From contig NZ_LSUQ01000022.1 in NCBI RefSeq assembly GCF_001642725.1, forward strand, positions 1 through 41,736: 41,736 nucleotides of DNA, read 5' to 3'. Below, piece after piece: positions 1,527-28,264 of this stretch. Position numbers and translations under genes: made by a program. Position 1 is the stretch's first letter; each line of letters starts with the position of its first letter. This DNA comes from Ferroacidibacillus organovorans (lineage in GTDB: Bacteria; Bacillota; Bacilli; Alicyclobacillales; SLC66). Under the pieces are notes generated by a model. It saw only the letters and a list, made by a program, of their open reading frames with translations. It did not search any database and was not told the origin of the DNA.

Positions 1527-1557
1527 TCATAGATCAGCATGTGCTTTTCATAGGGTA
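1527..1557 (+). promoter_or_regulatory. Putative sigmaE-type promoter for small ORF + LSR1
   Basis: TCATA (1527-1531), 17 bp, then CATAGGGTA (1549-1557); matches ATA-N16/18-CATAnnnT. Motif match only. Confidence 0.45.
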
Positions 1558-1594
1558 AAAGGGTAACGGTTGGTTTTCGCCGTTACTCTTTTTT
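1557..1594 (+). terminator. Intrinsic terminator after amidase gene
   Basis: GTAACGG-loop-CCGTTAC stem followed by TCTTTTTT. Confidence 0.7.
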
Positions 1595-1610
1595 CATATG
1601 AGGGGGAAGT

Positions 1611-1817
1611 GTGATGGTAAACGAGAATCGCTTGACGCAAAAGGAGGATGAGGTGCGGAGTGAGGAAGCCTGCGCGAGGTTTCTGCGAGCGGAACAGTTT
1701 CGGGCGCGCTTTCGTGTGGAAGAGCAAAGCGGCGAGGCATCTCTTCAAGCGTTGCTTGAGTTACGCTTACAGCGAATCGTCGAAACGTGGCCTGCTGAGG
1801 AGGATTTGCGCGTGTAG
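1611..1817 (+). CDS. Small hypothetical protein; candidate recombination directionality factor of element 1
   Basis: 68-aa ORF with GAGGGGG RBS immediately upstream of LSR1; function inferred from position. Confidence 0.55.
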   Translation: MMVNENRLTQKEDEVRSEEACARFLRAEQFRARFRVEEQSGEASLQALLELRLQRIVETWPAEEDLRV

Positions 1818-1868
1818 TTAATGGTTGCAAAACGTTGGGGATGTGAACACGGCGGGAGGGAGACGCGG

Positions 1869-3392
1869 ATGCGCTGTGCGATCTATGCGCGGGTTTCGAC
1901 CGATCGACAAGGCGAGTCTGTTGACCATCAGGTTTCGCTCCTGCGCGAGTTTGCCAAACGTCGGGGGCAGGACTGGGAGGTTTTGGAGCATCTCGTTTTT
2001 GAGGATGAGGGGGTTTCGGCGACAAAGGTTTCCATTTGGACGAGACCTGCAATGAAGCGACTGATGGAGGCGGCGGAGCGGTCGGAAGTGGATGTTGTCT
2101 TGTTTAAGGGCATCTCACGTCTGGCGCGCAATACGCAAGAGGCGCTCGACGTCCTTGACCGTTTGCGCGCGCGCGGCTTGCGCGTGCTCTCTTACGAGGA
2201 GAGCTACGATTCGGCGAAGGAGAATTCGAACTTCATGTTCACGATGCACGCGGCCATCGCTGAGTATGAGGCAGAGAAGATCGGTGTGCGCGTGCGGCTT
2301 GGCAATAAAGAGAAGGCGAAATCAGGTCGCTGGGTGGGAGGGACACCTCCTGACGGCTACTACGTTGGGCGGGATGGTCATCTGGTGCCTGATGATGCGC
2401 GCGCGGGACTCATCCGTTCGATCTTTGAGCGCTATGCGTTGGATGGGTCATCGTGCGCCGCAATCGCTCGGGAACTGAATGCGCGCGGCGAGACAACGTC
2501 GACCGGGAATGGCTTCTCACAGACAGCGGTTGCGAGAATTCTTGACAACGAGGTGTACGCTGGACACTTGGTTTACAATCGGCGAACGGATCGCACCGTT
2601 CGCGATTACGACAGTGAGGTGCCCGGCAAGAAGAAAGAGCGGCGAATGCCGAATGTGCGGACAGAGTGGGTAGTGGTACACTGCGCTCATCCACCGTTGG
2701 TAACGCCGGATCTTGTGCAAATGGCACAAATGCGCCGCGGCCGTGTGCGCAGCCAAGCGCCGCGCACAACGCATTTGCTGACAGGAGTCCTCTCTTGCGG
2801 GCGCTGCCGCGCACCCTTGATCGCGCAGGTCAAACGCACGGCAAAGCGGGTCTATCGCTATTATGTCTGCCGCACGTACCACCAAGCGGGGAGGCAGGCG
2901 TGCGCGCAAGGAAGTGTCCCTGCGGATGATCTTGAGTCCTATGTGCTGACGCGCTTGTCTGAGCGCTTGCGCGAGGTGAGCATCAACGTGCTTGCACCCG
3001 CTTTGCAAAGCGCGTGCGCGCAAGGGGAGGAGCAGGCGAAACGCGAACGCGAACGCATCAATCGGCAACTCACGCGTCTGACGGACGCTTGGATTGCGGC
3101 GCAAGTCGATGATGTCCTGGCAGGTCAGGCCGCGTCTATTCGGGGGCGCATCGCGCGCCTGACGGCAGAGCGTGACGCGCTTTACAAGCGCCTGACGCAG
3201 GCGGGGTTGCACAGACACAAACGTGCGCAGGAGATCTATGCGCGGCTTGTCGATCTGGCGCAGGATGAACCTGCGATGAAACGATACTGGGTGCAAATGC
3301 TGATCTCGTCGCTCGTCGTGCACGATCGTACCCTCCTGATCCAGTACACGTTTTCTTCATCTGACGACACCCCGATCGATGGGAACGTTTGA
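1869..3392 (+). CDS. Large serine recombinase LSR1
   Basis: YARVST catalytic motif, SRLARN, recombinase domain, CGRC...C zinc ribbon; GGGAGGG RBS before ATG 1869. Its 3' end overlaps the yhbH junction. Confidence 0.95.
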
Positions 3393-3733
3393 GAAATATA
3401 TGGCGCGAACGTTTTTCTTCTGGATGGTGCGCTTTTTGCGTACGCGCTATGAGAAGGTTGACATCCAATTTATCGCTCATCACACGGAAGCGCTCGTCGT
3501 CACAGAGGATGAATTTTTCACAAAGGGTGAGAGCGGAGGCACCATCTGTTCATCCGCGTATCAGACGGCACTCAATCTGATTGATGATCGCTATCCGCCG
3601 TCGCGCTACAACATCTACCCTGTGCACTTTTCTGACGGCGACAACCTCTCTTCTGACAACGAGCGGTGTGTGCGCCTCGTTGACGAACTGATGGGACGGT
3701 GCAACATTTTCGGATACGGTGAGGTCAATCAAT
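3376..3733 (+). CDS. yhbH: Sporulation protein YhbH (DUF444), internal segment of split gene
   Basis: [17 protein letters not shown]...GESGGT.CSS...HFSDGDN...YGEVNQ is typical of YhbH; homology stops at the core repeat. Confidence 0.92.
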
Positions 3734-3775
3734 TGAACGGCGTGCGCTCTCTCCACTCCTCATGGTTGAGATCCC

Positions 3776-5341
3776 CTAAAAGAGCAATTCGACATTGAGG
3801 CGTGGACATTCTCCGCCAGTGTCGTTCAGTGTGCGTGTATATTCAATTCTCCGCACGCTTTTGATCAACAACGCGCGCAGATCATCCCCCTTACACGAGA
3901 GGAAAAGGTGGGATGGCTCGCACCTCGCGCGCGCGTTAAGAGCTGATTTGGCGCGATTTGTTTTGTGGTTCGTTTCGTTTCGCTCTTGCTTTAGCGCCTC
4001 AAGGGATTCATTAGCCTGTCGCAGTTGCTCTGCCACTTCATCGTAGCGCGCTTGAAACTGCGTGCGCGTATACACTCCCTGTTCATACATCTCGCAGATT
4101 CGCTTCAATTGTTCTTCCCGTGCCTGGCGCGTCCGCGCAATGACGTGCGCGAGGGAATCAGAGACAGCAGTGAACTCTGTCTGTTCTGGGTTTGGCGTGA
4201 TCGCTACCCCGCGGAATTGATCCGAGAGCGCACGCTGCACAGCGTGCAGGACGAGTTCATAGCGAGCGCTGCGCGTCGGGCAACCTTTTGTGGCACAGCG
4301 CAGTGCATTGTGCGGACGATTTTTCACAGGTTGTCGAACCATGGCGCGCTTGCATGTTGCGCAAAAGATGAGGCCGGCGAGGGGATGGATCTTTTTTTTA
4401 TTGTTGGCTGAGGCACAGGTTGGCGGGCGCTTGGATTCGTTGTTGACACGCTCCCACGTCGCGCAATCTACGATGGGCTCGTGATTTTCTTCGCGAACGA
4501 TCCACGCATCTGGTTCCATCACAACGCGATGATAGCGGGCACGCTCCATCTCACGCACCTTGTGGCTGCGCACGCGTCCCCACACAAGCGCACCGCGATA
4601 GACTGGGTTCAAAAGGATAAAGCGCACGGTCGAAGGCGACCACAAAGCATTCCCCGATGGACTCGGCAACGCCATGGCGCGCAGGCGTTCCGCGATTGCC
4701 GATGGACCAAGGGAATTGCTTGCGAGCGCGTAGATCCACTTCACGACTGGCGCGGTCTGCGGATCGGGGATTAGCTTCAGTTCGTCTGTGCGCAGATAGC
4801 CGTAGGGAGGTCGCTTGCTGATCGAGCGCCCCGCTTTTACACTCTGTTCGCGGCCGCGCTGCATGCGCCGCGTGATTAACTTCAATTCACGGCGAGCGAG
4901 AAAGGATTCGAATTCCGTCCACTCCTCATCCAACTCATCACGCAGGTCGTAGATCTTGCGCGGCGTCACGATGCGCGTGCCGGAGCGCTTAAACGTCTCT
5001 TGAATCACACCCTGGTCGATCAGGTTTCCGCGTCCGAGACGGTCGAGATCCATACAGAGCACCAGGTCGTAGAGTCCATTGGATACATCGTGCAGCAACT
5101 GTTGCATCTGCGGGCGTTCGAGGATGTGCTCACCTGAGGCGATTTCTTGATACGCGCGTCTAATCTCCACGTCGTGTTGACCGGCGAGTTCGCACAGCGC
5201 GCGATGATGTTTGGCGAGCGTTTCGCCGTCTCCGCGCGCTTCGGCTTCGAGATCAGCGCGCGATTTACGCAGATAGAGCGCGGCGCGTAAACGCGGTGAA
5301 TGGACTTGTGATTCATGCACAGTCGTTTCTTTTATCGTCAC
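3776..5341 (-). CDS. Large serine recombinase LSR2
   Basis: YLRKSR catalytic motif, DLDRLGR, PPYGY, CATC...C zinc ribbon; AAGGAGG RBS before GTG; ends ~40 bp from the left core. Confidence 0.95.
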
Positions 5342-5361
5342 ATGAAGCCCTCCTTAGTGCA

Positions 5362-5389
5362 TTGCGCTTTCTATCCATTAGAGTATAAT
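5362..5389 (+). promoter_or_regulatory. Putative sigmaA promoter of the APC transporter
   Basis: TTGCGC-16 bp-TATAAT. Confidence 0.5.
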
Positions 5390-5450
5390 GAGTCACATTG
5401 AACTCGCAGAAGATCCGTCGATGTAAGAAATGATGGAGGCCTCTTATAAC

Positions 5451-7370
5451 ATGGCGTTGTTTCGTCCATGGCTCGATTCGGCAGTGATTACCCTTTCTGT
5501 CGTAGCCATTCTCTATGCATTCTTAAATTTTAATACATTCAAACGAGTGCTCGTCGGATCGCCCATGCGCACCCGCGAGCTACATTCAAAACATAATCGA
5601 CTCTTTTGGCTGATTGCACTACCGATTCTCGCTGCGGATCTTTACTCTTCAGTCGCGTACGGCCCGGAGGCCGGCATTGCGGAACTGACCGTCAATGCGC
5701 ACCTCGGCGTTGACGCCAAGTGGCTGATTCTCCCTGTCACCGGGGCTACCGTCTTGCTATTGATCATTCTTGTCACCTCGTACATCATGGGAGTCATCGC
5801 GTATCCGAACGGCGGTGGCGCGTATGCAATCTCCAAGGACAACTTCAAACGCCCGATCATCTCGCTCATCGCGGCCAGTTCCCTCTTGATCGATTATGTC
5901 CTGACGGTCGCCGTCTCGGTTACGGCAGGGATTCAGGCGATGGCGTCCGCCTATCCGGCGCTTGTTCCGCATGAAACGATCCTTTCGGTCGCATGCATTC
6001 TGCTAATCCTCGTGGTGAATCTGCGTGGTATCTCAGAGTCGGCGACGATTTTTGCGTGGCCGACGTTCCTTTTTATGTTCGCCATGATTTTCTTGATCGG
6101 AACCGGCTTTGTGCAAGAGTTTCATCACGGCTTTGTTCAGCCCGTGACACCGCCGTTTGGTACGCTTCCTAAAGCGCTCACCTCGCTGCTTTTATTAAAG
6201 TCATTCAGCGCGGCGTGTTCCTCACTGACCGGGATTGAGACGATCTCAAACGCGGTTCCGATTTTTCGCGAGCCGAAAACCAAAGGTGCAATCAAAGCGT
6301 ACATCGCGCTCGGCGTGATAACAGGGGTGACACTTCTTGGGTTCTCTTATCACCTTTATGTGAACGGGATCAACGTCATGCCAAACACGACGATGGAGTC
6401 ACAACTCCTGTCGCTCTACTTCGGCTTTGGCCCGATCTATCAAATTATCATCTGGCTGACGTTTATCGTGCTCATCCTCGCGGCAAACTCGACATTCACC
6501 GGATTTCCGCAATTGGCTGCGCTCGTCGCGGCAGACAGCTTTCTCCCGCGCGCCCTCATGCTGCGCGGAGATCGTCTCGGATACTCCAATGGGATGATCG
6601 TGTTGGCTGCGTTTTCCACCATCCTCGTTGTCGTTTTCAATGCACAGACCGATAATTTGATTCCTCTATACTCGATCGGCGTTTTCGTCGCCTTCTCTGT
6701 GGCACAGATTGGACTCGTGCGCTACTGGCTGCGCGAAAAGAAGGGTCGTTGGAAAACAAAACTGACGATCAACCTGATTGGCTCAATCGTAACCATGCTG
6801 GTGTCTGTCGTTGTCTCCGTGACAAAGTTTACGAGCGGTGCGTGGATCATCTTCATTGTTCTCCCGATTCTCCTGTTTATCGCGCTCGCTGTGCGCCGCC
6901 ACTATACGCAGATCGCGAACGAATTGCGGATTGACATGTCATGCATTCGCCCGGAATCACACCGTGTGATCACGGTCGTGCTGGTGTCTGGCGTCAATCG
7001 CGTCGTGCTTAACGCCCTTTCTTTTGCAAAGAGCATCAACAACGAAGTGATCGCGCTCTATATCGGCTTTGACGATGAATCGATCGAGCGCATCGAAAAG
7101 AAGTGGAATGAATGGGAGTGTCCCTGCCGATTGATCACCGTCAAAAGTGAGTATCGCTCGATTCTCTATCCACTGTCTCGCTTTATTGGGCGGCTGCAGT
7201 CGATGGAAGACGGGAAACCGGATCACGTTCATGTGATGATCGCCCAGTTTGTGCCTAAGAAGTGGTGGCACAACATTCTGCATAACCAGACGTCACTCGT
7301 GATCCGTGCTTGGCTTTTACGGCACCGGGATGTCGTGGTAACGACGATTCCCTATCATTTACACGATTAA
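5451..7370 (+). CDS. APC-family permease, KimA/YdaO-like K+ transporter
   Basis: KRVLVGSP...D.YSSVAYGPE, YPNGGGAY, LLIDYVLTVAVS and C-terminal HNQT...PYHL; about 12 TM segments. Confidence 0.88.
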   Translation: MALFRPWLDSAVITLSVVAILYAFLNFNTFKRVLVGSPMRTRELHSKHNRLFWLIALPILAADLYSSVAYGPEAGIAELTVNAHLGVDAKWLILPVTGATVLLLIILVTSYIMGVIAYPNGGGAYAISKDNFKRPIISLIAASSLLIDYVLTVAVSVTAGIQAMASAYPALVPHETILSVACILLILVVNLRGISESATIFAWPTFLFMFAMIFLIGTGFVQEFHHGFVQPVTPPFGTLPKALTSLLLLKSFSAACSSLTGIETISNAVPIFREPKTKGAIKAYIALGVITGVTLLGFSYHLYVNGINVMPNTTMESQLLSLYFGFGPIYQIIIWLTFIVLILAANSTFTGFPQLAALVAADSFLPRALMLRGDRLGYSNGMIVLAAFSTILVVVFNAQTDNLIPLYSIGVFVAFSVAQIGLVRYWLREKKGRWKTKLTINLIGSIVTMLVSVVVSVTKFTSGAWIIFIVLPILLFIALAVRRHYTQIANELRIDMSCIRPESHRVITVVLVSGVNRVVLNALSFAKSINNEVIALYIGFDDESIERIEKKWNEWECPCRLITVKSEYRSILYPLSRFIGRLQSMEDGKPDHVHVMIAQFVPKKWWHNILHNQTSLVIRAWLLRHRDVVVTTIPYHLHD

Positions 7371-7375
7371 AACAG

Positions 7376-7450
7376 GATAGACGGTAGCATGGCGCTCTCT
7401 CGCCACCGTTTACGGGAAAATAATCGGCTGCGCCGTTATTTTGAGATAGA
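7376..7450 (+). repeat. ~75-bp two-hairpin repeat, copy 1
   Basis: Near-identical to 28265-28340; begins and ends with GATAGA. Confidence 0.85.
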
Positions 7451-7473
7451 GACAAGCGAGCCTCCCATATCGT
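7446..7473 (+). promoter_or_regulatory. Putative sigmaE-type promoter for ORF 7497
   Basis: ATA (7446-7448), 17 bp, then CATATCGT (7466-7473). Confidence 0.4.
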
Positions 7474-7496
7474 TAAGAAGATAGGGAGGTGTTTTT

Positions 7497-7697
7497 ATGC
7501 CGTCTACGACGTACTACCTTGATCACGCGATCGTAACCATTCACGTTCGCTGCGAATGGAACGCAAAATCGTTTGATGGAGTGGTGGAGACTCCAATCTA
7601 TCGCACGTTTTGCGAAGCGGTGCGGCGTGTTGCCAGCAATGGACAGGCAGAGAGCCGGGATGGGTCAATCAATACAACCGCAGCTCCACGCTCATGA
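7497..7697 (+). CDS. Small protein crossing the right att site; candidate directionality factor of element 2
   Basis: Strong AGGGAGGT RBS; ORF reads through the core; on the excised circle it would stop right after the core (59 aa). Confidence 0.6.
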   Translation: MPSTTYYLDHAIVTIHVRCEWNAKSFDGVVETPIYRTFCEAVRRVASNGQAESRDGSINTTAAPRS

Positions 7698-7816
7698 GCG
7701 CGTACCGTAACATTCGCTCGCCTCGCTTTCGCTGTGCGGTCATCAAGGATAAAGCGGAGGTTTACAAAGCGCTACGCACCTTCTTTTCCACTGCAGAAGG
7801 AGGGATCGTACCGTGA
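7663..7816 (+). CDS. yhbH: YhbH C-terminal segment
   Basis: [17 protein letters not shown]...VYKALRTFF matches the YhbH C-terminus; its stop overlaps the spoVR start (GTGA). Confidence 0.9.
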
Positions 7817-7991
7817 CACCAGATGAGATTCGCGAACTTGAGTCGTCGATTGAACGCATGATGGAGCTGGCGCAAGGGTTTGGACTTGACTTCTATGACA
7901 TGCGATTTGAACTGGTACCCGCCGACGTGTTATACACGTTCGGCGCGTACCAAGGCATGCCGACCCGCTTTTCACACTGGTCGTTTGGTAA
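7813..7991 (+). CDS. spoVR: SpoVR segment 1 (N-terminus)
   Basis: GFGLDFY.MRFE...[28 protein letters not shown]. Confidence 0.93.
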
Positions 7992-8018
7992 GACAAAGCA
8001 CCATGTGTATGAAAAAAA

Positions 8019-9437
8019 TTAGACATTCCAGTTGATCTCAAGATCTTGATTGGGACGAAGAAGGATCGTTTTGATGGCGGCCCGTAAAACTGCTTGGCGA
8101 GCGTCAAAATCCAGATCGTCCCAGCTCTGATCGATCAGACGCATAAGATTGAACAGGTCCTCTTTACGTGCGGGCTCGGGCGCTGCCTCCTCCAACGTAT
8201 CACGTTGTAACCATAACGCGCGTTTCTCGGCTTCTAATGCATCGATTCGTTCTTTCAGATGAGATGGCTGAATGAACCCTTCCTCAAAAGCGTCGTACCA
8301 TCGGTTTAATCGATGATCAATCTGGGTTAATTTTTCTTCAATCGCGGATAACACCACGCATGATTGGCGTTGTTCTTCAGTAGAGAGCTCAATTTCTGTG
8401 CGCAGGTCTTCCATGTCAATGGCGGTTGATCTCACCTTAGCGATGATCCAAGCTTCGAGTTTTTCTTGAGGGAAATAGCCTAATTGGCAGTGTTCTTGCC
8501 CTTTTCGATCTCTTTTGCGCACATGTTGATTCTTACAGGCGTAGTATTCGTAGGTATGTGTTTGTCTCTTTGTGCGAACGCGAATGACAGAGCTCCCGCA
8601 TAAGCCGCAACGACACAAACCGGAAAGCAAGTATGCGCCTGTCGATGTCAGACCGTTGCGGCGACGAGCCGTTTCATTTTGAACCATTGTGTATAGATCC
8701 AGAGGGATGATTGCCTCATGCTGACCCTCCACAGGCTCCGAAGGGCCGTTGGGTAACCTCCCGGTATAGATGACCCGGTCGAGGATGGATTTAATTCCGT
8801 TGTGATCGACCTTGATATCAGTACTGCGTGCATTGAGCCAATCAGCCAGTTCGAGTCGCGATTTACCTTGGAGATACATCTGGTTTATTTTACGAATGAG
8901 TTCTGCTTTTTCAGGAACGATCACCAACGTTTGATTCTGTTTATCCCAACGGTAACCAAAAGCGACCCTGCCTCCACTCCATCGACCCTGGCGAATCCTC
9001 ATTCGTCGTCCTGACGTTGTTCGCTCAATGATCATGTCACGCTCCAACTGTGCGAATACCGCAAGGATTCCAATGGTTGCCTTGCCCAAAGGTGTCGCGG
9101 TGTCAAAGGGCTCTGTTGAACTTTTGAAAGCGACATTGTTTTTTTCAAAGACATCCTCGAGGAGATGCAACACATCCTTTTGTCTTCGACTAAGACGGTC
9201 GAGTTTATAAACGACGACAAGATCAATTTTTCCTTCTAGGGTGTGCTTGATAAGTCTGGTCATTGCAGGACGATCAAGCTTCGTGCCCGTATAACCGTCA
9301 TCAATATAAAATCGGTAGTCTTCCCAACCCTGTGAGGCACAGTAGGCAATAAGTCGATCTCGTTGGTGATCGATTGAAAATCCCTGCATCGCTTGTTCTT
9401 CCGTGGAAACGCGGATATAGAGGGCAATCTTAGTCAT
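8019..9437 (-). CDS. Large serine recombinase LSR3
   Basis: [24 protein letters not shown]...C; likely start ATG 9437 with GGGG RBS; ends 27 bp from the left core. Confidence 0.95.
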
Positions 9438-9617
9438 AGCACACCCCATTGACTTTATTGATGTGACTTGATGCCAATGAATGATTGCTTCACCGTTATG
9501 ATATTTACGTTGTTTTGCAAAATGCGGCTCCACAACTCATATTTAAAAACAATCAAGAGGATATACGTATTCAGTTGGAGGTTTATAACCACAAATAACG
9601 ATTCGATAAGCTGGCAA

Positions 9618-9643
9618 ACGGACGTGCCGCTTGAGCATAGCCT
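9618..9643 (+). promoter_or_regulatory. Putative sigmaK-type promoter for the 46-aa ORF
   Basis: AC (9618-9619), 16 bp, then CATAGCCT (9636-9643). Confidence 0.4.
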
Positions 9644-9661
9644 TAATTAGGGGGTGTGCTT

Positions 9662-9802
9662 GTGGAGGAAAAACCGATCAAATTAAATCCGGATGCGGCA
9701 CGGTTGATTTTACGCCTGTGTGTTGAGGCCATACGTAGAGCGAACGCGAAACGGGGAAGAGAACGGGTAGAGGGCGTACAAAATCTTCAAGAGGGCGCTT
9801 AG
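9662..9802 (+). CDS. 46-aa ORF divergent from LSR3 (not in ORF track); candidate directionality factor
   Basis: GTG...TAG encodes MEEKPIKLNPDAARLILRLCVEAIRRANAKRGRERVEGVQNLQEGA; GGGGG RBS 7 nt upstream. Confidence 0.55.
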   Translation: MEEKPIKLNPDAARLILRLCVEAIRRANAKRGRERVEGVQNLQEGA

Positions 9803-9870
9803 CCTTCTTATGTAGGACAGGCCACAGTGAGTATGTATGCACGAGTAAACACCCGATATACGCACTGCAA

Positions 9871-10092
9871 ATCTTCAGCTAAGTGTAACAAAGCATTTCG
9901 AATCCGTTGCCTTGCGTGTGGAGTTAGTTTGTCTATAAATTTTTGTGCGTCTTTGCTCAGGAGTAGATTGTATATTCAGTTTTCCACGAAGATCTCATCA
10001 AAGGGAACGAAGTCGCCATTTCTCATCTCTTGCCGAATCCGTTTATATTCTGCAATCTCTGCGTCTGTCACGGGTTCATCATCCTCGTTCAT
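9871..10092 (-). pseudogene. Remnant RelBE/ParDE-type toxin-antitoxin pair
   Basis: 10092-9976 gives MNEDDEPVTDAEIAEYKRIRQEMRNGDFVPFDEIF (antitoxin C-terminus-like). 9975-9871 gives YNLLLSKDAQKFIDKLTPHARQRIRNALLHLAED (RelE N-terminus-like, truncated, no ATG). Confidence 0.65.
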
Positions 10093-11039
10093 GAATCACT
10101 TGCTTTCTTTGTACGGGAGGCAATTTTCATGATTTCGTTGGCAACAACAACCTCTGTTCCTGCTAAGCCCACAGAGCAGAATAGAGTAATATCGGTTTCT
10201 GTCATTCTTCCGGATGCTTTTCCACATACGATTTCGGACAGTTGCACAATGCGATTTTCACATTTCGTATCCACCAAGAAATGGGGTGTTTTATAAGCGT
10301 GAAGCTGTTCGATCGAGTCCGTCGCGATGATCGTACTCTTAATGCCCAAATCGAGGGGTACCTCATGCCAATTTTTAGTTTTTGGGCCAACCGTATTGAT
10401 GTGTGTTCCTGGTTTGAGCCAGTCGGATTCGAATACAGGAGTGCCACTGTTGGTCGCACAGATGACGATATCGGCATCTTCGATGCAATCTCTTGGGGAA
10501 GTGGCAACTGCGATATTCGCATGGATCTTCTTGCGCATTCCCTCTGCAAATGCTTCTCGGTTTTCTTGCTTGCGGCTATAAACCTTAATACTTTTAATGT
10601 TTCGTACAGCCACGGCTGCCTCCAATTGTGTCCGCGCTTGTAGTCCCGTACCCATCACGGCGATTTTTTTTGCATCGACTCGAGCCATGGCGTTTATTGC
10701 TGCGCCACCGATTGCGCCAGTACGAATGGCACCGATGAGATTGCCGATGACCACTCCCTTAAAAACACCCGTATCCGAGTCAAAGACGCACACGAGCTGT
10801 TGATGACCCTCTGCATCATTTTCGTACGTATCGTAGACACGAAATCCAGTAACCTTTTCGAGTCCAGTTGCGGCTCCTGCCGTAAAAACCAAGTTGCCCT
10901 GTTCCGCTTCCACACGGAAACGTGGCGGTGATACAAGGGTTCCGTTTATTTGCTCCTGAAAGCAACGTTCGATGGCGTTCACGATCCGCTTCATGGAGGC
11001 AAACGATTCAACATCGTGATCCGTAAGAATGGAGTACAT
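10089..11039 (-). CDS. Ornithine cyclodeaminase/mu-crystallin family protein
   Basis: IRTGA.G, GTGLQA, ADIVICAT, HINTVG, F.SVGLA motifs. Confidence 0.9.
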   Translation of the reverse strand: MYSILTDHDVESFASMKRIVNAIERCFQEQINGTLVSPPRFRVEAEQGNLVFTAGAATGLEKVTGFRVYDTYENDAEGHQQLVCVFDSDTGVFKGVVIGNLIGAIRTGAIGGAAINAMARVDAKKIAVMGTGLQARTQLEAAVAVRNIKSIKVYSRKQENREAFAEGMRKKIHANIAVATSPRDCIEDADIVICATNSGTPVFESDWLKPGTHINTVGPKTKNWHEVPLDLGIKSTIIATDSIEQLHAYKTPHFLVDTKCENRIVQLSEIVCGKASGRMTETDITLFCSVGLAGTEVVVANEIMKIASRTKKASDS

Positions 11040-11244
11040 GCAATACACCCCTTCACTGTTCCAATCTGTTACAGTGCGTTTTGTGACGTAAAGGATCTCA
11101 GCGAGTGCCAGGGAACGTCCATCTTCAATTATTTAAAACAAATCGATGCGAATGACAGCATCAAAGGATTCCATTGACCCATGAATAGGACGGTTTAATT
11201 TATTGTGTCTACGTGCTATTGCATAAATCCTCAAGGGATATTAA

Positions 11245-12261
11245 CTAACCATACACCTCTGCCATCCAATTGGCGTAATCGGACACCGCTTGGATCAATT
11301 TTTCCAGCTCTTGCAAAGTATGTATGACTTCTCTGCGCCCCAACTCTCTGTCATCCATGTTGAATAGATCTCTGTTTAAGGAGCGACGCATGTTGTATTC
11401 GAGCCATCCTAACATACCTCCGAAACTGCCGTACACAGCATCTAATACTTCATTGTGCAACGTTCCGCCAGCTTCGAGATAAGCCTGAATCACTCCCTGG
11501 AAACGTTCCTTACTCACGGTCCCGTCGTGACTTCTGCTCCAATTAAATGCCACCTCGACTAATTCTACAGTTGGATGTATATAACCTGCCGATTCCCAAT
11601 CGATCAGATATGGAATGCCTTCGTGATTCCAAATAACATTTTTAGAATCTAAATCCCGATGACTAATGACAAATTTCTGGGGAAGATTGTCTACTGCATC
11701 CTGATACTTTCGAGACCAGTTGGTCACATCTTGCAAGATACTTTCACAAGAAAGACCCCAACACGATGCGTCCCGTCGAGCATTCTCGATGTGATACCTC
11801 TACGTATCGAAGGAAATTGCCGAGAAAGTTGGTAACGCCGAACCATCAATGACAATATCGAGGTTGTGTATCTGGAACAAAATCTCTCCGATGTGCTTAA
11901 CGTGCTCAGACGTACAATTTTCGGGAAGCAACGTGATACCATCGACCCAGTCAAACACCATCACATATTCACCATGCAATTCAATCCATGGTTGACGATC
12001 TACAGTTCTTGCAGAAACCGCACGAATGCCCTTTATATTAGCCTGATGTGCGACTCTTTCTGACATTCTATAATTGGTCTTTGCATCAGGACGAGACATT
12101 ATCTATGAATTCAGTACTTTTATTGCAAATCGTCCGTGGTCTGTCTCTAAACACCACATTCGATGGAGTAATCCGCCTGTGACGGGTTGTGGAGTTCCTT
12201 GGGGAATTCCAATTTCAAAACCATCGCATATCGCATTCAAATCGACACTCAAGCGAGTCAT
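11245..12261 (-). pseudogene. Aminoglycoside-phosphotransferase-like kinase with two in-frame TAG stops
   Basis: Three ORF pieces share one frame, separated only by TAG at 12103-12105 and 11800-11802. Motifs GGLLHRMW, HRDLDSKN, IDWE. Confidence 0.82.
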
Positions 12262-12292
12262 TTGATTTCCCCTCATCAGTAGAATAAGCCCT

Positions 12293-12721
12293 TTAGCAGA
12301 GTGACAAGCGGCAGTGAAACCGCTCAACTCCGGGATATTTCTCACCAAGGGACCGTATTTCAAATCCATATCTACGATAAAATTCAACCGCATCATGATC
12401 TGTTTCGGCAGTTAATTCCGTGAGATTCTCAAGCATAAGGAGGTTATCTATCATTCTTCGACCAATTCCGCAGTTACGCTTGTGTTCATCGACGGCAATG
12501 TGAAGAATTTCAGCAGAAAATCCTTCTCTCTTGAAACCAATGATGCCTAGCGCTGCGTCGTCATTATCGATGAATACATATAGTTTCGTATCACTTTGCG
12601 AGTACACTTGCACCAAAATATTGCTGAGCTTTTCATCCGTGGCGGAGCCGACCGCGTATGACAACCATTGTTTTATCTGCTCGATGGATGTGATATGGCT
12701 TCTGTACTCAACCAGCGTCAC
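12293..12721 (-). CDS. GNAT acetyltransferase
   Basis: HIAVD...RNCGIGR and AVEFYRRYGF motifs; GGGAGGG RBS before GTG 12721. Confidence 0.88.
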   Translation of the reverse strand: MTLVEYRSHITSIEQIKQWLSYAVGSATDEKLSNILVQVYSQSDTKLYVFIDNDDAALGIIGFKREGFSAEILHIAVDEHKRNCGIGRRMIDNLLMLENLTELTAETDHDAVEFYRRYGFEIRSLGEKYPGVERFHCRLSLC

Positions 12722-12786
12722 AAGCGACCCTCCCTTCCTCAGCAACCAAGCTTCGTTTGTCTCCCGTGAATCAAATCCAAACGATG

Positions 12787-13725
12787 TTATTTAGCGAGTT
12801 CTACAGCCAACAGCGCACCTACGTGCGCATTGTTCTTTACCAGTGCCACATTTGTCTCCAGGCTTTTACCATCGGTCAGTTCTTTAATTTTATCGAGAAG
12901 AAAAGGGGTTACGTCCTTGCCCCTGATGTGTTTCCGATGCGCTTCGTCCAGCGCTTCTGTAATGACTTTTTCAATTTCTTTTGCATCCATTGCGAATTCC
13001 TCGGGGACAGGATTCGCAATGACAGCCCCGCCATGGAGTCCGAGTTTCCACTTCGTGTGTAGGAATGAAGCTAATGCCTCCGGGCTGTCGAGCGAAAAGT
13101 TTGTCTGGAATCCACTTGTGCGACTGTAGAATGCAGGGAACTCGGTGGTCTGGTAGCCAATGACTGGGACGCCGTATGTCTCCAGGTATTCGAGTGTAAG
13201 TTCAATATCGAGGATCGATTTTGCGCCAGCACAGACAACGGCCACGTTGGTCTGCGCAAGCTCGTTCAAGTCCGCAGAGATGTCCATCGTTTGTTCGGCG
13301 CCGCGATGTACACCGCCAATACCACCCGTGACAAATACGCGGATACCCGCAAGCTGAGCGCAAATCATCGTTGCAGCAACCGTGGTCGCGCCACTCTGTC
13401 CTTGTGCGAGAACAAATGCCAAATCACGGCGACTGACCTTTGTGATACTGTCTCGATTTTCAGGGCATCCGAGCCATTCAAGGTTCTCATCGGAAAGTCC
13501 GATATGGATTTTTCCGTTCAAAATTGCAATCGTCGCCGGGACCGCGCCATGGTATCGAATAATGGCTTCGACTTCCTTTGCCGTTTGTACATTGGTTGGA
13601 TAAGGCATGCCATGTGAAATAATGGTCGACTCAAGCGCGACAATTGGCTTCTCAGTTCTCTTTGCCTCCATTACTTCATCCGAAAAATGCAACCATTGGT
13701 TTAACGACGGGTTCATATCTTCCAT
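12787..13725 (-). CDS. psuG: Pseudouridine-5'-phosphate glycosidase
   Basis: [47 protein letters not shown]. Confidence 0.95.
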
Positions 13726-13740
13726 CTCTCCTATGATGTT

Positions 13741-14850
13741 CTACAGAATTTCTGACAACCAGGCTTGAGCCTCGCGTGGGTCGATTTCTGTAGATACGGT
13801 TTCTTTTGTCACCAACGTTAGGCTGGACAAGCGAGCGGCAAATTGACATGCCTGTTTGACACTCGCATCGCTGACCATCGCAAAGCAGAAGCCAGCCACG
13901 AATGCGTCACCTGCACCAGTCACATCGACGACGTCGATGCTCTCTGCCGGTATTTTGCCAAAGGTGCCTGCCTCATCCAACCAAGCCACACCATCCCTGC
14001 CCATAGTTGCGACAACGGTCCGACACCCCCTATCTTTCAGTGCGACACATGCGGCGCGAACGCTATCCTCTTTATCGACAGGGATACCTGAAATTGCCTC
14101 CATTTCATCTCGATTGGCGATCAGCGTATGAATCCCGGTAAGGTCTCTTGGCAAGCGCTTGGCTTTGGGACTTGATACCGGAGCAACAATCAGTAAAGTG
14201 CCAGCCCTTGCCGACTCGGTAATGACAAAGGCAAGCGCTTCTGCCGGCAAGTTCGTGTCGACGATCGCAATCGTAGCTTGTTGCAGCACCCGCGATCTCG
14301 GTGTCAACTGCTCGACGGTTAAGTCGTCGTAAATTTCCATATCGGCGAGCGCAACAGTCATACTCCCGTCGACGTCGAGCACCGCAGTGTATGTTCCTGT
14401 GCGGTGTGCAGTCGATCGGATGATCTGGCTGACATCTGTACCAAGGCCCTCAAGGTGCGCGAGTATCATTTCGGCTTCTTTGTCGTTGCCGACCATGGTG
14501 ACAAGCGACGTGGGTAATCCGAGGCGTGTCATATTTTCGGCAATATTTCTTGCAACGCCACCAAATGACTCTACAACAAAAGAGGGGTTCGACGTGCCTA
14601 GCTGGATTGGTTCATACGCTTGAATTTTTCGATCTACATTCGCACCGCCGATGCACAAAATACGCCCTCGCTGTGGCAAAACGTAGGCCCGACCGAGAAT
14701 CTCCCCCTCTTTGATGAGCGCAGAGATATAAGCTGCTACCGCAGGTCTGGATGCATTCATTCGTTCAGCCAAATCTCGTTGGGAGATAAACGGGTTTTCA
14801 CGGATACAATGTAGAACTTCCTGTTTCTTGCTCCGACCCGACTCAGCCAC
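13741..14850 (-). CDS. psuK: HTH-PfkB kinase, pseudouridine kinase-like
   Basis: N-terminal HTH (NPFISQRDLAERM), GGVARNIA and DVTGAGDAF motifs; adjacent to psuG. Confidence 0.85.
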   Translation of the reverse strand: MAESGRSKKQEVLHCIRENPFISQRDLAERMNASRPAVAAYISALIKEGEILGRAYVLPQRGRILCIGGANVDRKIQAYEPIQLGTSNPSFVVESFGGVARNIAENMTRLGLPTSLVTMVGNDKEAEMILAHLEGLGTDVSQIIRSTAHRTGTYTAVLDVDGSMTVALADMEIYDDLTVEQLTPRSRVLQQATIAIVDTNLPAEALAFVITESARAGTLLIVAPVSSPKAKRLPRDLTGIHTLIANRDEMEAISGIPVDKEDSVRAACVALKDRGCRTVVATMGRDGVAWLDEAGTFGKIPAESIDVVDVTGAGDAFVAGFCFAMVSDASVKQACQFAARLSSLTLVTKETVSTEIDPREAQAWLSEIL

Positions 14851-14862
14851 ATCGTCACTCCT

Positions 14863-14909
14863 TATAACACATGTTATATTAGGTTAAACAATTGTTTGTT
14901 AGCAGTCAA
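14863..14909 (-). promoter_or_regulatory. psuKG promoter with two AACA-NN-TGTT palindromes
   Basis: Minus-strand TTGACT-17-TAACCT; palindromes at 14866-14875 and 14887-14896. Confidence 0.55.
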
Positions 14910-14973
14910 TCTACGATAGAAATTGCCGCATCGGTGATTTTACATCAATCTGAAATTTTCATATACCTGGTGT

Positions 14974-15620
14974 TTTGGTAAAGCGTACCACCGTATGAAG
15001 ATGGACTATGATTTGGGATTGAGCCGCATCTATGAACTGGTGATTAATTCGAATCCGTGCTACGCATTTCTGCTCGACAGCAATTCTCTCGTGCAAAATA
15101 AATTGGTGAGCGCCCACGTTCTCGCACACTGTGACTTTTTTAAAAACAACATGATGTTTCACCGCACCTCGCGAAATGTCGTTGAAAGTATGGCGGCGAG
15201 CGCGGAACGCTTTCGTACCTATGAGCTGCAATACGGAAAAGATGAGGTGGAAGCATTTCTGGATGCGGCGCTCGCGCTACAGGAACACATCGACCCATCA
15301 GAGCGCGCATTTCGTCATCCGCATACGAAACCGGATTTGCGCGAGGAGCAAGAGCAGTCACCTCGGGTCGGAAAATATGATGATTTATTTGCGCTGGATG
15401 GTCGTTTATCCGATCGTGCGAAGGTGGATGAAAAGAAGGCGGAAAATCGCAAAGCAAAGGGGTTCGCAAAAGACGCACCGCAAAAGGATTTGTTGCTATT
15501 TTTGCAATCGCACAGCAAGATTCTCGCGGAGTGGCAGCGCGACATGCTGACGGTGATTCGCGAGGAGATGCTCTACTTTTGGCCGCAGATTGAGACAAAA
15601 ATCATGAACGAAGGCTGGGC
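14974..15620 (+). CDS. spoVR: SpoVR segment 2 (middle)
   Basis: [38 protein letters not shown]...[16 protein letters not shown]. Confidence 0.95.
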
Positions 15621-15755
15621 TTCGGATTGCAAAAATGGTTTTTTTCATAGCGTACGAAAGATCCAAATGACACGAGTGATTCCGAAGGATTCTAGAATCC
15701 CCAACAAGGAGGCAACGCAAGAGCCCCCTTGTTTACGTAAACTTCAAGGGAGTTT

Positions 15756-16247
15756 TTATTCAGCCACGTCTGTGCGAACGAAAAACGCTGGCGGTTCTTT
15801 GCCCAAGAGTCGGAGGTAGACATAGCCTTGTCCGCGGTGATGAATCTCATTCTCGAGAGCGTAAGTAAGCCAACTCATCGCCGTGCCGTCAGGTCCACCC
15901 CAAAATGGCTCCGATCGCATGATTGTAAGCGATTCCATAGAAATCGATGGCCAAAGCTTGCGCGTTTGTTCGCGAACGTGTTGTCCATAGGCGAGCGCTT
16001 CTTGGATTGGAGCAGTCCGCAGCTCGTCTGGGATCCCTTCCCACTTCCATTGATCAAGCGCCAAACCCCTCAGATAGGCGTTTTCAATGCCCCAAATCTC
16101 AAAGAGCATCTCGCGAAACGGTCGCATGCCATTTACGGGCTGCTTGTCCATCGCTTCTGCGGCGTCCAAGTCGCGCGCAACAAAATTCGTGAGCCGCCGA
16201 TTCTCTTCCCACACATCCAAAAACCAAGATTTCCAGTCGAATTCCAA
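15756..16247 (-). CDS. DinB-family protein
   Basis: MRPFREM and [17 protein letters not shown] motifs; AAAGGAG RBS before TTG 16247. Confidence 0.85.
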
Positions 16248-16318
16248 GATGAACACTCCTTTTGAAGAATCCATGGCGTACGTTTGTACGATAGCACACG
16301 TGACATGCCAAAAACATC

Positions 16319-16549
16319 CTATTTTTCCGGTTCCCCATCAAAGAATGTAATCTGTGCCGCGCGCGCGATGTCTTCGTTTGTTTCTTGTTCAATCCATGTG
16401 CGCAAGGCCGCTTCGCGGACAGATTTGCACCACGTGGTGAGTTGTTGCTCTAGATGTGTCCTCACGGTTAAATCCGGGATTTCAGCGAGTTGTGTAAACG
16501 ATTGTTCGACATCGCCTATCTTAATCGAAAATCTGACGCGAACGGCCAT
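16319..16549 (-). CDS. 76-aa protein divergent from LSR4; candidate directionality factor
   Basis: GAGG RBS; position relative to LSR4 mirrors element 3. Confidence 0.55.
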   Translation of the reverse strand: MAVRVRFSIKIGDVEQSFTQLAEIPDLTVRTHLEQQLTTWCKSVREAALRTWIEQETNEDIARAAQITFFDGEPEK

Positions 16550-16788
16550 CTTTCCTCACCCCATGTTCATGGATATGAGTGGAGAATCGCGGGACAGCCC
16601 TGTGCAATTTGCTTTGTGATCTATGGTGATATTGCACACCTTCGTCTGAAACGCCACATTGACCAATTTGGGATTGAAATCTACCGTAGAGAGTAGCTGA
16701 ACAGAGACAGGACCTAGAATGCGCCACCCACTCATAGGCATAGAGAAGACGTGATTCGAATGCCTTGGTGAGGTGAGCGGAATCGGCG

Positions 16789-18309
16789 ATGCGTGAAAAT
16801 GCAGCGAAAAAGATTGCGATTTACTGTCGCGTATCCACGGATGAGCAGGCAAAAGAAGGCGTGTCGCTCGATGAGCAAAAGGCGAGGCTTCACGCGTACT
16901 GTCGCGCGATGGGTTGGGCGACAGAAGCTGTAGAGTATATTGATGACGGCTATTCGGCGAAAAATATGGAGCGTCCGGCGCTTGAACGCTTGTTGCGACA
17001 TGTGAAGGCAGGGCGCGTTGAGCGGCTCATGGTGACAAAACTCGATCGATTGAGTCGGCGTTTGCTTGATTTGTTGACGCTGATCGAACTGTTTCAAAAC
17101 CACGACGTTTCATTCGTATCGACAAGCGAATCCTTTGATACAGCGACGCCTTCCGGTCGCTTGACACTGCAGGTGCTCGGAGCTGTCGCGGAGTTTGAGC
17201 GTGAGCGCATACGTGAGCGCGTTTTTGACAACATGCTGCATGCAGCAAAAATGGGGAAATGGTTGACACAAGCTCCATACGGCTATCGGCTCGACGCGAA
17301 AAAGTTGGTTATTTGTGAAATGGAGGCGCTTCTTGTTCAGCGCGTCTTTCGCATGTTTGTCGAAGATGGTTTGGGATACTTTCAAATTGCAAAGAAATTG
17401 AATCAGGAACACATCCCTTCTCGCAATGGGAAGGCGTGGTCGATTCGGAGTGTCAAAATCATGCTGAGTAATCCTGCCTATGCGGGAACGCTTGTGTGGA
17501 ATCGCGTTGATTCGAGTCAAAAGCGTCGAGTGCTTAAAGAAGAAGACGCGTGGGTCGAGATGCGCGACGCTCACCCAGCGATTGTTGAACAGGCGCTGTG
17601 GCATCAGGCGCAGCAGCGCATCGCGAGCCATCCGCGAATGCCGCCGCGCGCGCAAGCCAGCCCTCATCTGCTGGGTGGCTATTTGCGTTGTGGAGAATGC
17701 GGCGCGGCGATGTCGATCGGTTGGTCTGGAAATCCGCGGCGAACGCGCGTCTATCGCTGTTCTGCGTATCGAAATCAGGGGCTTTGTCAGAGTAAGCCGT
17801 ATCGTGCAGACGATGTGGAGCGGTGGTTTGTGGAGGCGCTTGAATGCGTGGTGGAGCCTGTGAATCATGCGCGGCACACCGCTTTGGTTCAGCGTGTGCG
17901 GGCGGAGCAGATCGCCAAATTGGATCAGAGGATGCACGCCGCGAAAATGCGCTATGACAGACAGGTAGAAGCGTATACGGCGGGACTCATCGAGATGGAT
18001 ACCCTTGCGCGTGAAAAGGTGGCGCTGAAGCGATGTGTCGCAGAGTACGCAAAGGAGATGTCGACGACGGATTCATCTTCACATGATAAGGAGCTGGAGG
18101 AACGCCTGCGCGGACGGGCGGTTACGCTCGGCGATGCGCTAACCGTGCTTCCGGCTGACTGGATCAAAGCGAAACTGCGCACATGGATTCACAGCGTCAT
18201 TCTTCACGGACGTGAGGATCTTGAGATTGTGTTGTGTCCTGATCTGACGATGGTTTCTGATGCAATGGATCAATCCATTGGAGGATTTTTAGAGTATGGT
18301 GTCGAATGA
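16789..18309 (+). CDS. Large serine recombinase LSR4
   Basis: YCRVST, KLDRLSR, VAEFER, APYGY, CGEC...C. Confidence 0.95.
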   Translation: MRENAAKKIAIYCRVSTDEQAKEGVSLDEQKARLHAYCRAMGWATEAVEYIDDGYSAKNMERPALERLLRHVKAGRVERLMVTKLDRLSRRLLDLLTLIELFQNHDVSFVSTSESFDTATPSGRLTLQVLGAVAEFERERIRERVFDNMLHAAKMGKWLTQAPYGYRLDAKKLVICEMEALLVQRVFRMFVEDGLGYFQIAKKLNQEHIPSRNGKAWSIRSVKIMLSNPAYAGTLVWNRVDSSQKRRVLKEEDAWVEMRDAHPAIVEQALWHQAQQRIASHPRMPPRAQASPHLLGGYLRCGECGAAMSIGWSGNPRRTRVYRCSAYRNQGLCQSKPYRADDVERWFVEALECVVEPVNHARHTALVQRVRAEQIAKLDQRMHAAKMRYDRQVEAYTAGLIEMDTLAREKVALKRCVAEYAKEMSTTDSSSHDKELEERLRGRAVTLGDALTVLPADWIKAKLRTWIHSVILHGREDLEIVLCPDLTMVSDAMDQSIGGFLEYGVE

Positions 18310-18353
18310 ATAAGATTATTGTAGGTTGACGGTTTTTTGTGAGGGATCTAGGG

Positions 18354-23068: not shown

Positions 23069-23071
23069 AGG

Positions 23072-24184: not shown

Positions 24185-24231
24185 AGATGTCGGCATGGAT
24201 CGATTTGTATCGCATAGATTTTTTATAAGTG

Positions 24232-24305
24232 TTGTCATTTTTAAATTGACCGTGCTAGAATAAGCATAACGATTTAGCATAACGATATACTAAATCGTTA
24301 TGCTT
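24232..24305 (+). promoter_or_regulatory. sigmaA promoter and LacI-type operator array
   Basis: TTGTCA-18-TGnTAGAAT; perfect 16-bp inverted repeat at 24262-24277/24290-24305 with a third GCATAACGAT copy between. Confidence 0.75.
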
Positions 24306-24337
24306 GATTTGAACAAAATGATGAATGGAGGGTCGTC

Positions 24338-25627: not shown

Positions 25628-25654
25628 GAAAATGCTGAATGAAAAAATGGGAAT

Positions 25655-25686
25655 ACAAATACGCCGGGGTGTCCCGGCGTATTTGT
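25655..25686. terminator. Intergenic stem-loop
   Basis: Perfect 14-bp stem ACAAATACGCCGGG/CCCGGCGTATTTGT. Confidence 0.6.
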
Positions 25687-25714
25687 GCGAAATAACCTGA
25701 GGTGTAAACGCGAT

Positions 25715-28199: not shown

Positions 28200-28227
28200 T
28201 TTGTACGCTCCCCAAAATCCATTCGAT

Positions 28228-28255
28228 GTATGTTCATCAAAGTATGTTCATCAAA
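28228..28255 (+). repeat. Tandem 14-bp duplication GTATGTTCATCAAA x2
   Basis: Exact tandem copy upstream of the LacI gene. Confidence 0.8.
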
Positions 28256-28264
28256 TATGACGAA

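Follow-up and report, generated by a model that had tools for sequence, protein, structure and literature searches.

Candidate recombination directionality factors beside the four serine recombinases of elements that interrupt yhbH and spoVR in Ferroacidibacillus organovorans

Four elements and four small open reading frames

The Ferroacidibacillus organovorans contig NZ_LSUQ01000022.1 (assembly GCF_001642725.1), analysed over its full 41,736 nucleotides (the window; the draft genome to which the contig belongs has 3.03 Mb), carries the adjacent sporulation genes yhbH and spoVR in three pieces each, with four elements in between. Four independent large serine recombinase (LSR) elements interrupt yhbH twice and spoVR twice, and each element contains one complete LSR gene and, beside or opposite it, its own unrelated small open reading frame (ORF), as an initial annotation of this DNA had remarked. 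The reading that is probably correct is that each small ORF encodes the recombination directionality factor (RDF) of its own element, which would be made in the sporulating mother cell and drive excision there. Support for such a role is strong for ORF4, moderate for ORF3 and weaker for ORF2 and ORF1; ORF4 is very probably the RDF of its element and ORF3 has a better than even chance of being one, the prospects of ORF2 and of ORF1 are evenly balanced, and that all four are RDFs is rather doubtful. The initial annotation had proposed a set of orthogonal directionality factors under sigmaE/sigmaK control, and what stands of this is the case for ORF4 (conservation together with its LSR, a CATA promoter and a predicted complex) and, less firmly, for ORF3; ORF1 and ORF2 are supported as coding sequences, yet profiles do not link them to their counterparts elsewhere.

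The four ORFs are found at 1611-1817 (ORF1), 7497-7697 (ORF2), 9662-9802 (ORF3) and 16319-16549 (ORF4), with purine-rich ribosome-binding sites before all four starts. For ORF3 the GTG at 9662, 8 nt behind GGGGG, is a better start than the GTG at 9656 in the ORF list (9656-9802), in agreement with the earlier description. All four are encoded within the mapped bounds of their own LSR element, apart from the last ~10 codons of ORF2. The ORFs have no mutual similarity (blastp against 1464 element ORFs, no cross-match at E<=10) and no paralogues in the genome (tblastn, E<=1e-3). Neither Pfam nor PHROG (at E<0.1) had a family for them, a PDB sequence search with profiles of all four gave chance rows only, and among 50,697 phage records tblastn at E<=1 matched none of ORF1, ORF3 and ORF4, with one chance-level row (0.6) for ORF2 from an Arthrobacter phage. 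The four LSRs, whose frames are all open, share 22-33% pairwise identity, and against G001, a genome of the same genus, their ratios of non-synonymous to synonymous substitution (dN/dS) are 0.10-0.16.

ORF4 and its family

ORF4 encodes 76 amino acids on the minus strand (16319-16549, ATG at 16549), divergently from LSR4, and is the best RDF candidate of the four. The ORF4 family and the LSR are the only gene families common to all six second-site spoVR elements compared, the smallest of which is 2.9 kb, and in each the two genes are divergent neighbours. A profile made exclusively from counterparts outside the genus ranked ORF4 first among the 59,442 stop-to-stop ORFs of the genome (E 1.9e-12). 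Library-wide, a hidden Markov model (HMM) of ORF4 recovered 40 representatives at E<=1e-3, one of which is a 981-aa chance row, the remainder being full-length matches of 63-105 aa. The resulting 39 diverse sequences, in which identity falls to 17-37% and hydrophobic positions are kept, indicate that ORF4 is clearly a protein across genera and that its family, as judged by sequence comparison, is widespread and undescribed.

LSR4 itself has 1227 database relatives at E<=1e-30. Among 56 LSR4-like loci fetched from named genomes, there are 45 in which a member of the ORF4 family lies on the other strand, at a distance of 70-190 nt upstream of the LSR (three of these 45 being genomes already counted), and in 17 of the 56 a spoVR piece broken at the same position lies within the 2.5-kb flanks. 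The genera represented, all of the Bacillota, include Paenibacillus, Brevibacillus, Geobacillus, Bacillus, Heliobacterium and Alicyclobacillus. The AlphaFold model of ORF4 is confident (predicted local distance difference test, pLDDT, of 92.5) and consists of a beta hairpin followed by a long helix, for which Foldseek found no fold match in the PDB (best E 3.2). Pfam searches with the 39 family members returned chance rows only, and profile comparison showed no relation between the ORF4 family and the small-ORF family of the second yhbH site described below.

ORF4 differs from its G001 counterpart by only five bases. A segment of 574 bases at 16047-16620, comprising the 5' part of a DinB gene, ORF4 and its promoter, is 98.1% identical to G001, with flanks at 80-85%; G001 lacks window positions 15828-16046. 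The identity of this module could reflect either recent exchange or constraint on the DNA itself.

A predicted ORF4-LSR4 complex

Co-folding of LSR-ORF pairs, a check that the initial annotation had suggested, was carried out with ORF4 and residues 107-506 of LSR4, with analyst-made alignments of 39 and 64 rows, and the pair scored 0.69 (runs of 0.69, 0.72 and 0.66), with the best of three controls at 0.00. The runs have at least 67% of their contacts in common, and the pLDDT of the partner is at least 77. The mark applied to such scores is reached by 116 of 157 solved complexes and by 2 of 215 mismatched pairs, counts that are only a rough guide given the analyst-made alignments. In the LSR4 model the coiled coil (368-427) is formed of helices 368-397 and 403-427 with its tip near 398-402, and the predicted complex leaves this tip untouched, with the contacts at the coiled-coil base. 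On LSR4, ORF4 is predicted to contact the helix and hinge leading into the coiled coil (346-370), the helices that follow it (432-466), and the last beta strand (476-485), which pairs with ORF4 residues 6-8. Verified RDFs are reported (PMC12286644) to bind the junction of the second DNA-binding domain (DBD2) and the coiled coil, often adding a strand to the DBD2 sheet. The model supports docking of ORF4 at this same junction of LSR4, in the place and mode reported for verified RDFs.

ORF3

ORF3 (9662-9802, plus strand) encodes 46 amino acids divergently from LSR3, orthologues of which share 43-49% identity with it. A profile of the counterparts from genomes G010 and G018 placed ORF3 first among the 59,442 ORFs (E 0.014), and a motif I-x-R-x-C-x-x-A is common to ORF3 and these counterparts. 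In G010, G018, G002 and L114 (E 5.6e-4), the last an Alicyclobacillus locus, a homologue is divergent from the LSR3 orthologue and has CATAG at about -26 to -31; a further member is found in L117. Two Brevibacillus relatives of LSR3 (L109 and L110, 49% identity) have a 27-aa hydrophobic ORF instead of an ORF3 homologue, which stands behind CATATTTT in L109 and behind CACATTTT in L110.

ORF2 and ORF1

ORF2 (7497-7697, plus strand, 66 aa, ATG) lies at the far end of element 2 from LSR2, and ORF1 (1611-1817, plus strand, 68 aa, GTG with an ATG at 1614) ends 51 nt before the likely LSR1 start at 1869. Both are coding, as purifying selection is seen against G001: ORF2 is 70% identical with a dN/dS of 0.27, and ORF1 is 79% identical, with 18 of 155 non-synonymous sites changed and 37 of 46 synonymous ones. 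Outside the genus, as far as their sequences can be compared, ORF1 and ORF2 have positional counterparts only, without significant sequence similarity, and an ESM Atlas search for the two gave no usable match.

LSR2 has orthologues (41-76% identity) at the same yhbH site in other genomes, and at 13 other loci of this second yhbH site a family of small ORFs of 53-77 aa is divergent from the LSR. An N-terminal I-V-T-I-H strand is common to ORF2 and this family, and profile-profile comparison matches the two weakly (P 0.008 over 44 columns). Past the attR core (7664-7672), the last ~10 codons of ORF2 use yhbH sequence in a different frame. LSR1 (3376-3392) and LSR2 (3750-3798), like ORF2 (7664-7697), read over the att cores into the host gene in another frame, and because these frames cross the cores, excision would alter the last codons of all three.

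For ORF1, a search of 5.8 billion proteins returned two matches, ORF1 itself and its G001 counterpart. Nevertheless, an ORF of 46-72 aa stands directly upstream on the same strand in all six LSR1-like loci. The LSR1 relatives of four Thermoactinomycetaceae genomes have an ORF family of their own in this place, of 46-63 aa and on the same strand (L191:2255-2443, L192:2207-2389, L193:2253-2390 and L194:2234-2407), two of the four with CATA ~33-36 nt before the start. Comparison of ORF1 with the G009 and G010 counterparts by hhalign gave P values of 0.083 and 0.24, respectively.

Promoter candidates and the sigma factor question

CATA motifs described in the initial annotation are present upstream of all four ORFs: CATAGGGT at 1549-1556, CATATCGT at 7466-7473, CATAGCCT at 9636-9643 and, on the minus strand, CATATCCAT at 16577-16569. 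The window is not enriched for CATANNNT (55 matches, 53.8 expected), and it is the position of CATA, rather than its frequency, that is unusual. CATA occurs 20-35 nt before the start codon in three of the four ORFs here, as compared with 133 of 1948 control genes of the genome (6.8%). Among relatives, it occupies the same interval in six of six members of the ORF4 family, three of three of the ORF3 family, seven of ten for ORF2 and the yhbH-site family, and one of four in the ORF1 group. For the families of ORF2, ORF3 and ORF4 together this amounts to 16 of 19, and CATANNNT is found there in 14 of the 19 against 36 of the 1948 control genes (1.8%), figures to be read with the provisos that the interval was chosen after the data had been seen and that related genomes are not independent.

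The ORF4 promoter candidate (16569-16599, minus strand) consists of GGCTGTCCC followed by CATATCCAT, with a gap of 14 nt between GTCC and CATA; the CATA lies 28 nt before the ATG, in CATATCCA, which is without the T of CATA-N3-T. When more loci are taken, CATA at -24 to -33 behind a GGGTTGTCC box is present in 43 of 45 genes of the ORF4 family, where the surrounding intergenic DNA no longer aligns. The logo of these 43 loci reads aGGGTTGTCC, N14, tGCATAgannT, which ORF4 fits in its GTCC, its 14-nt gap and its CATATCCAT, and the family keeps the spacing from CATA over ~18 nt to the ribosome-binding site and start. The reverse complement of GGGTTGTCC is GGACAACCC, with nine conserved positions, each present in 29-38 of the 43 loci; it is a candidate SpoIIID box, as it fits the Bacillus subtilis SpoIIID consensus, WWRRACAR-Y. 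The initial annotation had ranked the ORF4 motif as the weaker of the set, whereas the ORF4 promoter turns out to be the best conserved of the four.

The ORF3 candidate (9618-9644, plus strand) has AC, 16 nt, then CATAGCCTT, with CATA 26 nt before the GTG at 9662 and CATAGGGT or CATAGATT at the same place in G010, G018 and L114. The ORF2 candidate (7445-7473, plus strand) is AGATAGA, 14-15 nt, then CATATCGT, with AGACAAG at 7450-7456; its CATA, 31 nt before the ATG, is kept in G001 (CATATCCT at -32). A TTATTT that had been considered as part of the ORF2 promoter was dropped, as it belongs to a dispersed 76-nt repeat with a terminator-like hairpin. The ORF1 candidate (1528-1557, plus strand) is sigmaE-like, with TCATAGA, 14-15 nt, then CATAGGGTA, and has the same arrangement in G001. 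Candidate boxes of the GGACAA type are seen ahead of CATA for ORF4 (GGACAG), for ORF2 (AGACAAG) and in homologues of ORF3 (TAGGACAA or GGACAA), and none were found at ORF3 or ORF1 of the window.

Between the ORF1 promoter candidate and ORF1 lies a hairpin followed by U6 (1557-1594, plus strand). The fold of 1556-1603 has a 14-bp stem at -17.8 kcal/mol (z -5.9), and its G001 counterpart reaches -19.9 kcal/mol (z -5.7); its loop of 8-10 nt reaches or exceeds the limit of 8 set in the terminator scan, which therefore did not list it. Since the gap from hairpin to start is only 16 nt, the ORF1 promoter must lie at or before the hairpin, and a transcript starting ~7 nt after the CATAGGGTA box would, by inference, begin inside the 5' arm of the hairpin.

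A -10 element of the form CATA-N3-T is common to sigmaE and sigmaK, and the -35 regions offer no firm basis for choosing between them, so that the earlier suggestion of sigmaK on element 3 and sigmaE on elements 1 and 2, which would have ordered the excisions in time, is not supported by these sequences. The AC located 16 nt before CATA in ORF3 is a two-base signal and is not kept in homologues, which have AC 12-13 or 18 nt away. Scans for sigma-70-type promoters upstream of LSR2, LSR3 and LSR4 and around ORF1 gave no matches.

Proposed mechanism and alternatives

In the inferred sequence of mother-cell expression, binding and excision, a small RDF would bind its LSR at the point where DBD2 passes into the coiled coil, turning the enzyme from integration towards attL x attR excision. 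With promoters proposed to be of mother-cell type in front of the ORFs, production of the RDFs would be confined to the mother cell during sporulation; such promoters would have a -10 CATA-N3-T ~25-30 nt before the start codon and, for ORF4 and possibly ORF2, an extra GGACAA-type box like a SpoIIID site. ORF1, directly upstream of LSR1 on the same strand, may be co-transcribed with it, in the manner of skr and spoIVCA. With the departure of the four elements, yhbH and spoVR would be rebuilt in the mother cell, and the spore would keep the interrupted copy. A more ambitious form of the proposal, in which one 30-kb stretch holds four mutually orthogonal LSR-RDF pairs under a single mother-cell grammar (CATA as -10 element, joined in the -35 region, for ORF4 at the least, by a SpoIIID-type box), is put forward tentatively and with some doubt.

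A number of observations weigh against RDF roles for all four ORFs and their common control. Searches with HMMs and profiles of the yhbH-site counterparts gave no link to ORF2, which may be unrelated to that family, because here the permease gene takes the divergent place. Profiles of the positional counterparts of ORF1 in other genera likewise fail to find ORF1, whose CATA box is 62 nt upstream of the start and in front of the strong hairpin and U6. The three CATA misses among the ten of the yhbH-site set all come from one genus, which has CATTCA instead; -35 regions are poor or not conserved across genera, except for the ORF4 box. For ORF4 the dN/dS against G001 is uninformative because the module is 98% identical in DNA. 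The complex prediction covers one of the four pairs, ORF4-LSR4, and a passing score supports binding without showing it. Finally, the sequencing runs listed as containing this DNA include no RNA run, and the contigs of four DNA runs (X1, X5, X6 and X8) showed no sequence joined over element 2 or element 3, although contigs drop rare forms.

Much of this bears on the alternative that only some of the ORFs, ORF4 and perhaps ORF3, are RDFs, with ORF1 and ORF2 being lineage-specific genes, such as regulators or cargo, and elements 1 and 2 using an unrecognised factor or needing none. This alternative, considered unlikely though deserving of attention, would account for the single database relative of ORF1, from the same genus, for the failure of the profiles of positional counterparts to find ORF1 and ORF2, and for an ORF1 promoter geometry unlike the others; ORF2, moreover, is 2.2 kb from the LSR2 start with the permease gene in between, and its tail is host sequence beyond the att core. 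However, element 2 contains LSR2, the permease gene and ORF2 only, so that nothing else in it could be the factor; the CATA of ORF2 is spaced as in the family elsewhere and accompanies the 44-column profile-profile match; a small ORF lies directly upstream in each of the six LSR1-like loci; and RDFs are described as diverging beyond recognition (PMC12286644).

It is improbable that the elements are fixed remnants which no longer excise, with yhbH and spoVR dead or dispensable and the small ORFs and motifs as relics. The absence of a joined (excised) form from the contigs of the four runs would suit this explanation, as would the absence of sigma-70-type matches upstream of LSR2, LSR3 and LSR4, but the former shows nothing when contigs lose rare forms, and each of the four LSRs has a complete open frame. 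In addition, purifying selection acts on LSRs and small ORFs (dN/dS 0.10-0.27), the gene pieces are in frame with short common junction cores, and the sites are occupied across genera. Still more improbable is that the CATA and GGGTTGTCC signals control the divergent LSR gene or a short regulatory RNA and that the ORFs are incidental. The signals of ORF3 and ORF4 do lie in a short region common with the LSR gene, and the ORF4 module, with 98% of its DNA identical to G001 beside flanks of 80-85%, could be under constraint as DNA or RNA; against this, the ORF4 family is kept as a full-length protein over 39 sequences, ORF4 folds confidently and is predicted to dock on the LSR, the spacing of CATA, ribosome-binding site and start is kept, and no Rfam match was found (scan of 1400-29200).

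Relation to known systems

An LSR paired with a small, family-less RDF of the mother cell is already a known scheme, represented by SprB, Skr, CD1234 and GirX, which fits ORF4 well and ORF3 fairly, and fits ORF1 and ORF2 by position and coding evidence only. Skr, GirX and CD1234 were likened by layout, size and promoter description, and the sequence comparison covered phage records.

SprA and SprB of SPbeta, which resides in spsM of Bacillus subtilis, resemble the present elements in combining an LSR with a small family-less RDF that has a mother-cell promoter just upstream, and in rebuilding a sporulation gene by excision. The gene of SprB (58 aa) is transcribed from a point 20 nt upstream of its start codon, and its promoter combines a perfect sigmaE/K-type -10 with a -35 that is imperfect (PMC4191935). 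The CATA spacing at ORF2, ORF3 and ORF4 fits such a geometry and would put their transcript starts ~14-20 nt ahead of the start codon. Unlike that system, the elements here have no phage genes in the window, the four ORFs have no sequence similarity to it (tblastn of the phage records), and the elements are four in number in two adjacent genes. The layout of ORF1 and LSR1 is like that of SpoIVCA and Skr of the skin element in sigK of B. subtilis: Skr has 64 aa, its gene is directly upstream of spoIVCA on the same strand, and a sigmaE promoter (with SpoIIID) lies >200 bp before the LSR start (PMC6957869), to be compared with an ORF1 promoter candidate ~320 nt before the likely LSR1 start. The two differ in the arrangement of the genes: skr and spoIVCA share 101 nt, and ORF1 stops 51 nt short of the likely start of LSR1.

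Nearest to ORF4 in promoter grammar, a box with CATA, is CD1231/CD1234 of skinCd in Clostridioides difficile, where the 72-aa CD1234 is under sigmaE and a SpoIIID box, with a transcript start 14 nt before the start codon, and the LSR CD1231 is not sporulation-specific (PMC5025042). The boxes are placed differently, that of ORF4 overlapping the -35 region (14 nt before CATA) and that of CD1234 lying 46 bp upstream of the transcript start. GirC/GirX of gin, a non-phage element in gerE of Bacillus cereus, has the same logic and size as ORF3 (46 aa), with a different target gene; GirX has 42 aa, was recognised through being the only small ORF conserved among the elements, and was unannotated in some genomes (PMC5595907).

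Both spoVR and yhbH are cited as targets of such elements (PMC4191935; bioRxiv 10.1101/2021.11.22.469490). In Geobacillus thermoglucosidasius, an element named vrin interrupts spoVR and is reported to leave it during sporulation (Abe et al. 2013, as cited in PMC4191935 and bioRxiv 10.1101/2021.11.22.469490), and in the genus of this host three Geobacillus genomes (L039, L049 and L076) have LSR4 relatives (58% identity) with an ORF4-family neighbour. No RDF named for a spoVR or yhbH element was found in the literature searched, which did not take in Abe et al. 2013.

For most tools built on large serine recombinases the RDF is the half that is missing; RDFs share no fold and are difficult to identify. 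ORF4 is in this respect a well-supported candidate for a new RDF family of ~70-80 aa with no Pfam family, which pairs with a recombinase clade of >1000 database relatives and whose conserved promoter makes it easier to spot; if the proposal is right, the family may serve the spoVR-site LSR clade throughout Bacillota as its general RDF. The three further candidate pairs come from the same cell and would be orthogonal by construction. For sporulation biology, two neighbouring mother-cell genes would depend on four separate excisions, being rebuilt by independent events in the same cell, and the testable grammar of box and CATA may tie RDF timing to SpoIIID well beyond B. subtilis and C. difficile. 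RDF and LSR genes that cross the att sites would, moreover, be cut by excision itself and form a self-limiting switch.

Layout of the locus and neighbouring features

Gene pieces and elements were mapped by Pfam scans and by comparison with the intact yhbH-spoVR pair of a relative. The N-terminal piece of yhbH (DUF444) and the left part of element 1 are on another contig, C91; in the window the middle piece (3379-3750, plus strand) covers DUF444 profile positions 256-381 and the C-terminal piece is at ~7664-7816 (plus strand), listed together with the N-terminal piece of spoVR as a feature at 7700-7995. The spoVR pieces, also on the plus strand, are N-terminal at 7813-~7995, middle at 14980-15624 and C-terminal at 28435-29073. 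All gene pieces are in frame, the junction cores are short and shared and encode VNQ, FGK and NEGWA, and these same four insertion sites are occupied in several related genera.

Element 1, ~7.2 kb by comparison with the relative, has its right end at ~3380 and continues on C91; elements 2, 3 and 4 extend over ~3750-7668 (with LSR2, the permease gene and ORF2), ~7993-14985 (with LSR3) and ~15625-28435 (with LSR4). LSR1 (1821-3392, plus strand, likely start 1869) is at the right end of element 1 and has the Pfam domains Resolvase, Recombinase and Zn_ribbon_recom; LSR2 (3776-5341, minus strand) and LSR3 (8019-9533, minus strand) are at the left ends of their elements, and these, like LSR4 (16789-18309, plus strand), were recognised by Pfam.

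Element 3 (7993-14985) is absent from G001. In a metagenome run, X8, contigs of element 3 have 8-28x depth as against ~245x in the flanks, with breaks at 7977-7991 and 15003. This low depth and the absence from G001 are hints that element 3 is not fixed and is perhaps present in only part of natural populations, contig depth being a poor measure. The element also contains an APH-like ORF of 163 aa (11245-11736) that matches only the C-terminal part of the Pfam model (158-230 of 239) and is probably a remnant.

The cargo of element 4 includes, in a row at 18339-24184, genes for a terpene synthase, a squalene-hopene-cyclase-like protein, a GGDEF-HD protein and a polyprenyl synthetase, behind which follow an MFS transporter, an FGGY kinase and a LacI regulator. 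On excision this cargo would be lost from the mother-cell chromosome.

The 76-nt repeat mentioned above occurs at 7376-7450, between the permease gene and ORF2, and at 28265-28340, just before the C-terminal spoVR junction of element 4, with further copies on contigs C98, C77, C6 and C48; copies are 85-92% identical and end in the terminator-like hairpin AAAAUAAUCGGC-UGC-GCCGUUAUUUU. The copy before ORF2 folds no better than shuffled sequences (z -0.28), and the repeat has no Rfam match.

Elsewhere in this 3.03-Mb genome, matches to the LSR 'Recombinase' domain number 18 on 13 contigs, and other genes may be split in a similar way. In a relative, G022 (C1:533137-668437), the first-site spoVR pieces are 135 kb apart, which points to a very large element, perhaps a prophage, at the same site.

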